Shown here: piece by piece, positions 18,800 through 19,966 of the stretch
How positions within the stretch are numbered: position 1 is the stretch's first letter
Layout of the letters: each line of letters begins with the position of its first letter
Assembly: GCA_034420175.1 (NCBI GenBank)
Contig: DAOULP010000083.1
Span: 191 to 64,190 of the forward strand
DNA from: Dehalococcoidia bacterium
Lineage (GTDB): Bacteria; Chloroflexota; Dehalococcoidia; DSTF01; JALHUB01
Direction of reading: 5' to 3'
Length of the DNA: 64,000 bases
The notes under the pieces: model-generated
The model's input: only the letters and a program-made list of their open reading frames with translations
Database searches by the model: none
What the model was told of the DNA's origin: nothing
Made by a program: the position numbers and the translations under genes

Positions 18800-19441
18800 A
18801 TGAAGTGGCGAGCACTTTCGTTAGCGTTCACCGCGGCGGGTGTTGGCCTGGCGCTCACTATGGCGTTGGCTCAGCCTTGGACAGATACCCAGACGTCCAG
18901 TGGCAGCATCAACGCGACAACCGAGTCGGCCGAGCTGTATATCTGCGAGCCGGGTGGTGTGGACTGCGAAGTCGACGATAGCGGCGCCGATGAGGCCATC
19001 TTCGAAGGCGTAGAGGACCTGTACCCTGGAGCGACGGCGAGCTATTCGCTGAGGTTGAGAAACGTCGGAACCCTCCCGTGGGACGCCACTGGCATCGCTC
19101 CTGCCTTCGTCGAGACATCCGATCCGGGGGACGACTGTGACATTCAGCCCACCGTCCGCCTCAAGATGGTCTCCAAGAACGACAACCATATCACGAACCC
19201 GGTCGGGGGGTGCGGCAGCAACCCCGACTACGATCCTGGCCTCCCTCAACTCATCACTGAGAGCACTGAATGCGTGGACGGATATGGAATACCCAGGTAC
19301 TACTGCTGCGGGACAATCCATGTAGCTCCGAGCGGCAATGAGGACGTCCACATGTACGTGACTCTGTCTTCCAGCGCACCCGTTGCCTGCAAGGACAACG
19401 TATGGGACCTCTCGATTGTATGGACAGCCACACCAGACTAG
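18800..19441 (+). CDS. Secreted protein with a TasA/camelysin-like (SipW-cognate-type) N-terminal signal region
   Basis: AGGAG RBS. Signal peptide MKWRALSLAFTAAGVGLALTMALA followed by QPWTDTQTSSGSINAT, which resembles the F-S-D-T-E-T-S-S-G-N motif of TasA/camelysin-family signals. Cys-rich mature part. Confidence 0.5.
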   Translation: MKWRALSLAFTAAGVGLALTMALAQPWTDTQTSSGSINATTESAELYICEPGGVDCEVDDSGADEAIFEGVEDLYPGATASYSLRLRNVGTLPWDATGIAPAFVETSDPGDDCDIQPTVRLKMVSKNDNHITNPVGGCGSNPDYDPGLPQLITESTECVDGYGIPRYYCCGTIHVAPSGNEDVHMYVTLSSSAPVACKDNVWDLSIVWTATPD

Positions 19442-19495
19442 CGAGGCTGGATGAGCAGCGTCCTCCCTAATTGGACAAGGCGCGGGTACCCAGCA

Positions 19496-19966
19496 ATGAC
19501 GAAGCTGATACTGCTAGCGACACTCATGGGGGGCCTGGCGCTCTGTGCAGTGGCATACGCCACTGACTCCTGGACCGACTCCCAGACGGCGAACGGCTCC
19601 ATCAGCGCCGCGCCAGACACGGACGGTGACGGACTGTGGAATCCCGTTGACCCTGATGACGACAACGATGGGATATGTGACCCAGGAGTCGTTGACCCGT
19701 CATGTACGGGGTCCGACAACTGCCCCCTTGTCCCCAACTCCGACCAGGCGGACGGCGATGGAGATGGCATCGGTGACGCCTGCGACCAACCCGCTGCCGT
19801 GGGCGGCATCGCCGAACTCCCGGAAGCGGCTACGGCCGCTTTGCCAGAGCGCAGGTCGTCGCCTCCTAACACTGGCGTGCTTGCTGGCCTTTCAGCAGGT
19901 GGCGCCCTGTTGCTGACGGCGGCTGCCTGGTACGCCAGGAGGCGCCGACTCCGCCGAAGGGCTTGA
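19496..19966 (+). CDS. Secreted Ca-binding thrombospondin-type-3-repeat protein with a C-terminal sorting-signal-like anchor
   Basis: Signal [22 protein letters not shown] then [15 protein letters not shown], the same motif as the upstream gene. [22 protein letters not shown] and [24 protein letters not shown] are TSP3-like repeats. C-terminus PPNTG + [19 protein letters not shown] + [11 protein letters not shown] has LPXTG-like topology. Confidence 0.55.
   Translation: [156 protein letters not shown]

Follow-up and report, generated by a model that had tools for sequence, protein, structure and literature searches.

A two-gene locus from uncultured Chloroflexota probably encodes a minimal, cell-attached fiber of the TasA superfamily

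Here, we analyze two adjacent genes, termed A and B, in a 64,000-nucleotide stretch of DNA from a Dehalococcoidia bacterium (contig DAOULP010000083.1; the whole stretch is called the window below). The genes encode small, predicted secreted proteins that carry the same short motif after their signal peptides, and that recur side by side in related genomes. We find that protein A is a divergent relative of fiber-forming proteins of the TasA superfamily, and propose that B attaches the A fiber to the cell.

Results

Two adjacent genes encode proteins with a common post-signal motif

The start codon of gene A is preceded by AGGAG at a distance of 9 nt, and gene B begins in the frame of A, 10 nt past the A stop codon. 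Two starts have been called for B: an ATG at 19451, giving 171 aa (NCBI gene call), and an ATG at 19496, giving 156 aa (Logan gene call). The features of the pair are as follows.

18800..19441, + strand: gene A (213 aa; open reading frame and gene call), secreted beta-sandwich protein, putative divergent TasA-superfamily (AbpX-like) fiber subunit
18800..18871, + strand: signal peptide of A, residues 1-24, predicted cleavage between A-L-A and Q
18878..18916, + strand: proposed N-terminal donor strand of A, WTDTQTSSGSINA, from family conservation and the AbpX/TasA alignment
18965..19030, + strand: acidic loop of A, C-x-x-D-D-S-G-A-D-E-x-I-F-E-x-x-E-D-L-x-P-G, candidate calcium pocket at the acceptor groove
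19451..19966, + strand: gene B (open reading frame and gene calls), putative donor-strand-bearing anchor protein without a sandwich domain
19496..19561, + strand: signal peptide of B, predicted cleavage between A-Y-A and T, read from the sequence
19571..19609, + strand: donor-strand-like motif of B, 9 of 13 residues identical to the A motif
19616..19786, + strand: thrombospondin type 3 (TSP3) calcium-binding repeats of B, one degenerate and one canonical, forming an acidic spacer
19799..19963, + strand: C-terminal anchor domain of B, with VGGIAELPE, a spacer containing PPNTG, a 20-residue hydrophobic helix ending in AAWYA, and RRRRLRRRA

As read from the sequence, the signal peptide of A combines a basic n-region, a hydrophobic core (modeled as a helix over residues 2-23) and an A-x-A site, the last residue of which, A24, is kept in 54 of 61 family members. 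The layout of the B signal peptide is found in all B homologues. After the signal peptide, A and B share the pattern W-T-D-[TS]-Q-T-x-x-G-S-I-x-A, and BLASTP aligns the two proteins (E=1e-4) across the signal peptide and motif. Since the two motif copies agree at only 28 of 39 bases, with synonymous differences, neither is a recent copy of the other. A regular-expression search for W[TS]D[TS]Q across all six frames of the 64 kb finds the A and B sites only. A preliminary description of the locus as two adjacent secreted proteins with a common motif is confirmed.

Protein A defines an unannotated family in Chloroflexota

A word-indexed search of 5.8 billion proteins with A returned 18 proteins, all without a Pfam domain or name, and a HMMER profile search gave 118 matches at E<=1e-3 among 1.84 billion cluster representatives. 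When one genome per GTDB species was scanned, the family appeared in two genomes, 'Chloroflexi bacterium RBG_16_64_32' and a metagenome-assembled genome named 'Dehalococcoidia bacterium'. From these genomes and from the source names of TSP3 relatives, we infer that the family belongs in Chloroflexota.

Conservation was counted in a 61-sequence alignment numbered on A. Within the motif, a W, L or F occupies position 27 in 58 of 61 sequences and a V, I or L position 37 in 57, with G35 kept in 55 and D29 in 41. In the acidic loop, C56, D59 and E65 are invariant (61/61), and D60 and D64 are present in 58 and 55 sequences, respectively. Other conserved stretches are L-Y-I-C-E, R-L-R-N-V-G, and four near-invariant cysteines. 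Mature A is acidic (isoelectric point (pI) 4.05, 15.9% Asp+Glu), as is the family as a whole (medians 4.05 and 16.1%).

Some family members outside the window (P0160, P0162, P0164, P0239) carry a YVTN-type beta-propeller of ~300 residues within the A sandwich, after its N-terminal half and before its last strands. These proteins imply that an A-type fiber subunit tolerates a large displayed domain.

Protein A is a divergent branch of the TasA superfamily

The preliminary description had likened the shared motif to the N-termini of TasA/camelysin proteins of the SipW-cognate type, and structure prediction of A bears this out. An AlphaFold2 model built from the 61-sequence alignment has a predicted local distance difference test score (pLDDT) of 86.2 and a predicted template modeling score (pTM) of 0.73. 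Foldseek comparison of this model with 350,542 PDB chains ranks the TasA fiber (8aur_A, E 1.6e-4) first and the AbpA pilus (7ueg_A, E 1.7e-4) second; these are the sole matches at E<=1e-3, with other donor-strand pilins ranking lower, and a weaker first model of A gave the same top two. The beta-sandwich/jelly-roll core of the A model is thus structurally like TasA or AbpA. Both monomer models leave residues 25-44 as coil, at lower confidence.

The fold matches of A also include the N-terminal domains of GH123 enzymes and CBM3 modules, and the Pfam family to which A is distantly linked, PF12389, is named after a metalloprotease. One might therefore read A as a soluble secreted enzyme, such as a camelysin-like protease, or as a carbohydrate-binding module, B as an unrelated TSP3 surface protein, and the motif as a shared export or glycosylation tag. 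We consider this very unlikely: A has neither HExxH nor another catalytic motif, TasA and AbpA match with roughly tenfold better E-values than the enzyme domains, the AbpX sequence match described next takes in calcium ligands, and A and B show strict synteny and motif co-variation.

At the sequence level, the 61-sequence A profile searched against 177,635 PDB sequences finds AbpX as its best match, at marginal significance (9sj2_C, E 0.0096, 18.7 bits; 9rhp_A, E 0.042); a profile of 18 sequences found nothing meaningful among the PDB sequences. In AbpX, the donor strand runs from W2 to I12 and W2 serves as a clamp; calcium is bound by E4 and, from the next protomer, by D18, D46, D48 and E52 (10.64898/2026.01.04.697558). 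The profile alignment pairs this donor strand, WSETLSLSATIS, with the A motif, WTDTQTSSGSIN. It also pairs EKAYPGAEVNVTFTLENVGT with EDLYPG...LRLRNVGT of A, and AbpX APGEFEKFKL with the A-family consensus APGDYEDVRL (APSGNEDVHM in the window protein). It places the invariant residues D59 and E65 opposite D46 and E52, two of the calcium ligands of AbpX, and brings G35 and I37 into register with AbpX A10 and I12. W27 and D29 lie two residues apart at the mature N-terminus, a hydrophobic residue followed by an acidic one as in AbpX. In the 40 of 61 family members without a proline at column 26, this pair occupies positions 2 and 4 after the predicted cleavage between A and Q; the extra proline of the window protein moves W27 and D29 to mature positions 3 and 5. 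For AbpX homologues, a pI of ~4.0 and ~15% Asp+Glu have also been reported, along with an N-terminal extension that monomer predictions leave unstructured (10.64898/2026.01.04.697558). Given the AbpX-like spacing, register, acidic residues, overall acidity and unstructured N-terminus, the likeliest role of the A motif is that of a donor strand whose Asp would bind calcium and through which A would polymerize.

Alignment to TasA itself points the same way. In TasA, the segment that immediately follows the site of SipW cleavage (residues 28-38) is a donor strand, filling in the sandwich of the next subunit (PMC9674648, PMC10151520). Using a TasA sequence identical to that of 8aur, hhalign matches the 61-sequence A profile to TasA at a probability of 68.9%, in a region spanning the signal peptide, the strand and the first sheet. 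The alignment pairs the signal peptides, the A motif region with the TasA 28-38 strand, 'ELYI' with TasA 'TLDL', and EDLYPGATASYSLRLRNVGT with SNLKPGDKLTKDFQFENNGS (TasA 'NLKPGD...FENNGS', A 'DLYPGA...LRNVGT'). PF12389 is the commonest weak Pfam match in the A family (8 of 61 members, best E 0.0041), and the SipW-type signal model TIGR04088 gives one match, at E 0.22, among the 18 close A homologues. Ten distant matches of the A profile (whole-library E 1e-29 to 6e-6) bridge the gap: all ten pass PF12389 and seven pass TIGR04088, with an N-terminus that reads 'GT-A-F-T-D-T-Q-T-A-S-G-x-V-N-A-G-T-I-D-L'. As far as sequence comparison goes, the link of A to PF12389 is transitive only, through these distant relatives. 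With four independent lines of evidence converging, among them the hhalign match to TasA, the profile search of PDB sequences and the intermediate sequences, we conclude that A is a divergent branch of the TasA superfamily. The TasA-like, SipW-cognate-type character of the motif therefore holds by remote and transitive homology, in agreement with the fold search and the AbpX match.

The same homology suggests another role for the motif. It is homologous to the region modeled by TIGR04088 ('SipW-dependent-type signal peptide'), a model that distant relatives pass, and in Bacillus SipW acts on TasA as well as on TapA (PMC9674648). The motif could accordingly be a mere recognition element for a SipW-type signal peptidase, with A and B co-processed and no strand exchanged between them. 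Neither the 64 kb nor the flanks of other loci, however, yielded an S26/SipW domain or motif. Peptidase_S26/S24 and Sortase are absent from the precomputed Pfam matches of called genes from ~8.8 kb to past 64 kb and from direct Pfam scans of open reading frames in 1-8.8 kb, and scans of the window for the SGSMxP and TLxTC motifs found nothing in real open reading frames; likewise, no SipW or dedicated signal peptidase adjoins the module in the flanks of the other loci examined. The earlier observation that no sipW-like gene lies nearby is thus borne out for the full 64 kb, where neither a SipW homolog nor a sortase was found. The A-x-A sites of A and B are of the ordinary kind and would be compatible with processing by a housekeeping signal peptidase, as proposed for AbpA. 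Moreover, conservation extends at least 13 residues into the mature protein, taking in the acidic position that in the AbpX donor strand is a calcium ligand. Because the same TasA segment has been shown experimentally to be a donor strand, recognition by a peptidase and strand donation are not mutually exclusive, and we regard recognition alone as an improbable account of the motif.

Protein B pairs a conserved strand with exchangeable attachment modules

Nine distinct loci offer enough sequence downstream of A to examine its neighbor (the window, L002, L005, L007, L008, L012, L015, L016 and L017). In all nine, a B-type gene directly follows A; the wider neighborhoods differ between loci and consist of housekeeping genes. 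The motif comes after a signal peptide in every B protein, and a sandwich domain is absent from all of them. The motifs of A and B also match within pairs: both read L-G-D-T-Q-T in L015 and in L017, and both read W-T-D in the window. Across the nine loci, the B motif scores a mean BLOSUM of 43.8 against its cognate A and 30.8 against non-cognate A proteins (permutation p=0.0003). We conclude that the shared motif most likely makes B an anchor or nucleator for the A fiber, beyond being a co-substrate of the same peptidase.

Outside the motif, B proteins are variable. A full-length B query retrieves mostly unrelated TSP3 proteins, the sole true full-length relative being P0020 (62% identity). 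The TSP3 repeats noted earlier in the window protein are real: a canonical repeat (19715-19786, residues 74-97) can be read after a degenerate one (19616-19681), and the TSP3 region of the NCBIfam model MtsC matches B at 3.3e-8, with Pfam TSP_3 sub-threshold (14.9 bits against a cut-off of 25). PF02412 is present in B homologues, reaching 29 bits in that of L005. The B ectodomain is acidic (pI 4.05, 21.6% Asp+Glu). The middle part of B consists of TSP3 repeats in the window, L005, L007 and L008, and of a Pro-Thr linker in L015.

The C-terminal end of B is exchanged between loci as well. In the window, L008 and L015, B ends in a hydrophobic helix and a WYARRR tail. The 104-aa B protein of L017 consists of a signal peptide, the motif and a Dockerin_1 domain (PF00404, 31.6 bits against a cut-off of 22.9), and the B proteins of L002, L005, L007, L012 and L016 end in dockerin-like paired (EF-hand-like) repeats, as judged by eye. 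The strand is thus kept while the attachment module is swapped, as expected of a plug that serves as an adaptor. In L012, the gene after B (2424-3752) encodes a 442-aa secreted protein with the same dockerin-like end as L012 B, which suggests a docking partner common to several secreted proteins; a secreted S8 peptidase follows (3891-5483).

The C-terminal tail of B belongs to a wider family

The end of the window B protein has the layout given in the preliminary description, with PPNTG (19862-19876) followed by a 20-residue hydrophobic stretch and RRRRLRRRA. This tail aligns with those of the L008 and L015 B proteins and of two unrelated proteins, and a five-sequence tail profile finds 92 metagenome proteins with the same tail, several of them labeled Dehalococcoidia. 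Many of the 92 are short and probably partial; where upstream domains are present, they are of the LamG, Kelch, TSP3 and YVTN types. Outside the window, the tail is carried by proteins encoded at 7980-8534 and 9312-9749 of L008 and at 4016-4354 of L015, and by P0207 and P0250-P0340. The tail consensus starts with (P)VGGIAELP[DE]V-x-G...SS-x-P-x-Y, followed by the helix. Within the window, the VGGIAELP...GGWYARRR tail occurs on B only.

The tripartite arrangement of motif, hydrophobic helix and Arg tail had led to the suggestion that B is a sortase substrate with a non-canonical, LPXTG-like PPNTG motif, in which case B, with any attached A, would be joined covalently to peptidoglycan. B scores close to the cut-offs of two NCBIfam models (22.0 against 23.5 bits for NPXTG and 15.2 against 15.9 for LPXTG_anchor), two other tail proteins just pass LPXTG_anchor (16.1 and 16.9), and bacterial AbpX loci can have LPXTG anchors and sortases (10.64898/2026.01.04.697558). 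Yet the T-G of PPNTG is not conserved: the position reads SSSRNY in the L008 B protein and SARDHA in that of L015, and in the wider tail family it is a loosely conserved Ser/Gly/Pro-rich stretch. The conserved signatures lie elsewhere, VGGIAELP 12-25 residues upstream of the PPNTG position and GGWYARRR on the predicted cytoplasmic side after the helix. Matches of tail proteins to sorting models are weak, spread over LPXTG, GVDTG, GPS-CTERM and MYXO-CTERM, and all fall on the helix and tail, parts common to many unrelated CTERM models. With no sortase domain or TLxTC motif in any real open reading frame of the window, sortase attachment has little likelihood in our judgment. Instead, the B tail is a lineage-wide Chloroflexota C-terminal anchor that has the layout of a sorting signal and falls outside the curated classes. 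The VGGIAELP...GGWYARRR tail may represent an undescribed sorting or anchor signal and, being conserved, could identify an entire group of surface proteins from this lineage.

Two other proteins touch on this theme. P0207, outside the window, has an A-like sandwich but not the N-terminal donor motif, and the sandwich is fused straight to a VGGM...GWYVQRKRAA tail. As a possible acceptor-only, membrane-anchored variant, P0207 would point to fibers of opposite polarity. Within the window, an 863-aa secreted protein without a Pfam match (21395-23986) has its own C-terminal hydrophobic helix and RRR tail.

The gene pair lies between repeats of a tRNA-Met gene

The A+B pair is flanked by two related elements.

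18389..18463, + strand: tRNA-Met (CAT), left boundary (ARAGORN; Rfam tRNA 69.9 bits)
20099..20152, + strand: 54-nt direct repeat of the tRNA-Met 3' part, right boundary, 100% identical to 18410-18463

The preliminary description had placed the pair in a tRNA-bounded cassette. On the left, this is accurate; on the right, the boundary is a repeat, 1.7 kb downstream, of the 3' part of the tRNA gene and not a second tRNA, with ARAGORN finding one tRNA at the boundaries and Rfam scoring the right repeat at 22.9 bits, below threshold. A third copy of the tRNA-Met 3' part lies at ~20445-20516, interrupted by a GC-rich insertion of ~22 nt, and the downstream flank of the tRNA is repeated at 85% identity. 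An open reading frame for a 92-94-aa GIY-YIG nuclease (20169-20453) lies between the second and third copies, its 3' end entering the third. Repetition of a tRNA 3' part together with its flank is a signature of insertion into a tRNA gene, and the copies here suggest serial insertions at tRNA-Met. It is therefore plausible that A+B was acquired by insertion. Some findings temper this reading. The 1.6-kb insert between the repeats contains no integrase, and its GC content (0.62-0.63) is only slightly lower than that around it (~0.65). Searches of plasmid and phage collections with the cassette matched the tRNA fragment alone, and a tRNA stands beside the A+B module in none of the eight other loci.

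Elsewhere in the window, a 499-aa protein with weak, sub-threshold AAA_25 and AAA_16 matches is encoded just 5' of tRNA-Met (16810-18309, +), and a double-zinc-ribbon (DZR) protein (23896-25101) follows the 863-aa protein just downstream of the tRNA repeats. The region ~28197-46684 holds cyclic di-GMP/PAS signaling genes (a GGDEF-EAL protein, an 1840-aa multi-PAS kinase, a GGDEF protein and a 1210-aa HAMP-PAS protein), and 48667-64000 an exopolysaccharide cluster (Wzz/GNVR kinase, WecG, Bac_transf, flippase, GT2, methyltransferase, Wzy and deacetylase). These signaling and exopolysaccharide genes are loosely consistent with a matrix function, yet they are not linked to the A+B module. A prepilin-type N-terminal methylation domain (PF07963) is found in a 123-aa protein (~32645-33016, +) that stands alone beside response-regulator genes.

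Discussion

A proposed model for the A+B module

We consider it probable that A and B constitute a minimal, two-gene module for an extracellular fiber of the TasA superfamily, attached to the cell and closest to the calcium-dependent AbpX, in which B is a strand-only, membrane-tethered nucleator. From the motifs, homology, fold, synteny, co-variation and domain swaps described above, we infer the following for export, polymerization, calcium dependence and membrane topology. A and B would be exported by Sec and cleaved at their A-x-A sites, and mature A would be an acidic, disulfide-containing beta-sandwich. Judging from the AbpX alignment, Asp29 of the strand and D59, D60 and E65 of the acidic loop probably share calcium ions, as in AbpX. 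Since B has the strand and no sandwich, it could only donate; like TapA with TasA, it would plug the first A subunit at its groove. By analogy, then, B would play the role of TapA, as an adaptor for the free groove at the cell-proximal end of the fiber. Its TSP3 spacer, C-terminal helix and Arg-rich, putatively cytoplasmic tail would tie the fiber to the cell membrane; in related genomes, a dockerin in place of this anchor would tether the same type of fiber to a cohesin-bearing partner.

Several observations weigh against this model. The co-variation of A and B motifs comes from nine related loci only, and gene conversion could give the same pattern. Most TasA and AbpX loci come with a dedicated signal peptidase, and none was found beside this module. 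Compared with its AbpX counterpart, the A donor strand has a more polar character, with Q, T and S at the places of AbpX L6 and L8. Finally, the TasA-like character of the motif does not extend to direct model matches: neither A nor B matches TIGR04088 (cut-off 19 bits) or PF12389, and in direct scans both stay below every curated Pfam and NCBIfam threshold.

TasA-type donor-strand fibers are an emerging, cross-domain way to build biofilm matrices, and the evidence for them comes nearly all from Bacillus and hyperthermophilic archaea. If our model is correct, this system extends to uncultured Chloroflexota, stripped down to two genes and without a dedicated peptidase. It would also mean that attaching a fiber can be simple, requiring a donor strand on a tether whose end is swapped between a membrane helix and a dockerin, and it would make the nucleation and anchoring step of TasA-type fibers testable with short peptides. 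Because members of the A family are annotated only as hypothetical proteins, the proposed fiber role supplies a function for them. A broader generalization is possible, though we hold it as doubtful: that strand-only adaptors of Dehalococcoidia-like Chloroflexota, built from a signal peptide, a donor strand, a spacer and a swappable transmembrane tail or dockerin, plug TasA/AbpX-type fibers onto membranes or cohesin scaffolds with no chaperone, dedicated peptidase or sortase, and that the transmembrane tail, borne by many unrelated surface proteins of this lineage, could in addition be an undescribed sorting signal acted on by a processing enzyme.

Comparison with known systems

The anchoring part of the proposed module recalls two known systems. 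The B tail shares a C-terminal hydrophobic helix, an Arg-rich end and near-threshold scores with sortase anchors (TIGR01167, NF033846), and differs in that the motif at the sortase position is not conserved, the conserved elements lie elsewhere, and no sortase was found in the window. Dockerin-cohesin attachment (PF00404) is represented by the B protein of L017. The window B ends in a transmembrane tail instead, and the analysis turned up no cohesin partner.

Among fiber systems, AbpA/AbpB of Pyrobaculum calidifontis (7UEG; PMC9245690) resembles A+B in its economy. AbpA is the second Foldseek match of A (17% identity), only the subunit and one accessory gene are conserved, processing is by a generic signal peptidase, and the accessory protein AbpB is proposed to give the first complementing strand (PMC9245690). 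AbpB differs from B in being a 410-aa protein with three beta-rich domains, and AbpA differs from A in being archaeal and N-glycosylated, with no calcium-pocket signature.

AbpX of Pyrodictium abyssi (9SJ2, 9RHP) is closer to A, with W2, E4, A10 and I12 answering to W27, D29, G35 and I37, acidic residues at the places of D46 and E52, a pI of ~4 with ~15% Asp+Glu, conserved Cys pairs, and an N-terminal extension that is likewise unstructured in monomer prediction. A departs from AbpX in its four near-invariant cysteines, its larger variable middle (residues 125-170) and its more polar strand, and overall similarity is marginal. AbpX homologues have been reported in Chloroflexota, and bacterial abpX loci encode SLH or LPXTG anchors that AlphaFold 3 predicts to be joined by donor-strand complementation (10.64898/2026.01.04.697558). 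In contrast, the B anchor is strand-only, with TSP3 repeats and a non-LPXTG tail, and neither a 10-transmembrane-helix signal peptidase nor a DUF5305 accessory gene lies near A+B. The P. abyssi abpX (10.64898/2026.01.04.697558) and abpA (PMC9245690) loci also lack a dedicated signal peptidase.

A further counterpart is TasA/TapA/SipW of Bacillus subtilis (8AUR, 5OF1). TasA is the top Foldseek match of A, and distant relatives of A pass PF12389 and TIGR04088, models whose thresholds A and B themselves fail. The gene order, A then B with no sipW gene, differs from tapA-sipW-tasA. The N-terminus of TapA resembles the TasA donor strand, complements TasA and starts the fiber (PMC9674648, PMC10151520); B, too, would be a minor partner with its own copy of the donor strand, working at the fiber end next to the cell. 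TapA, however, has an Ig-like domain and no transmembrane tail, whereas B has no fold domain and is predicted to be membrane-anchored. Taken together, these comparisons indicate that A+B is most likely a divergent variant of a known fiber system, and not a new kind of machine.

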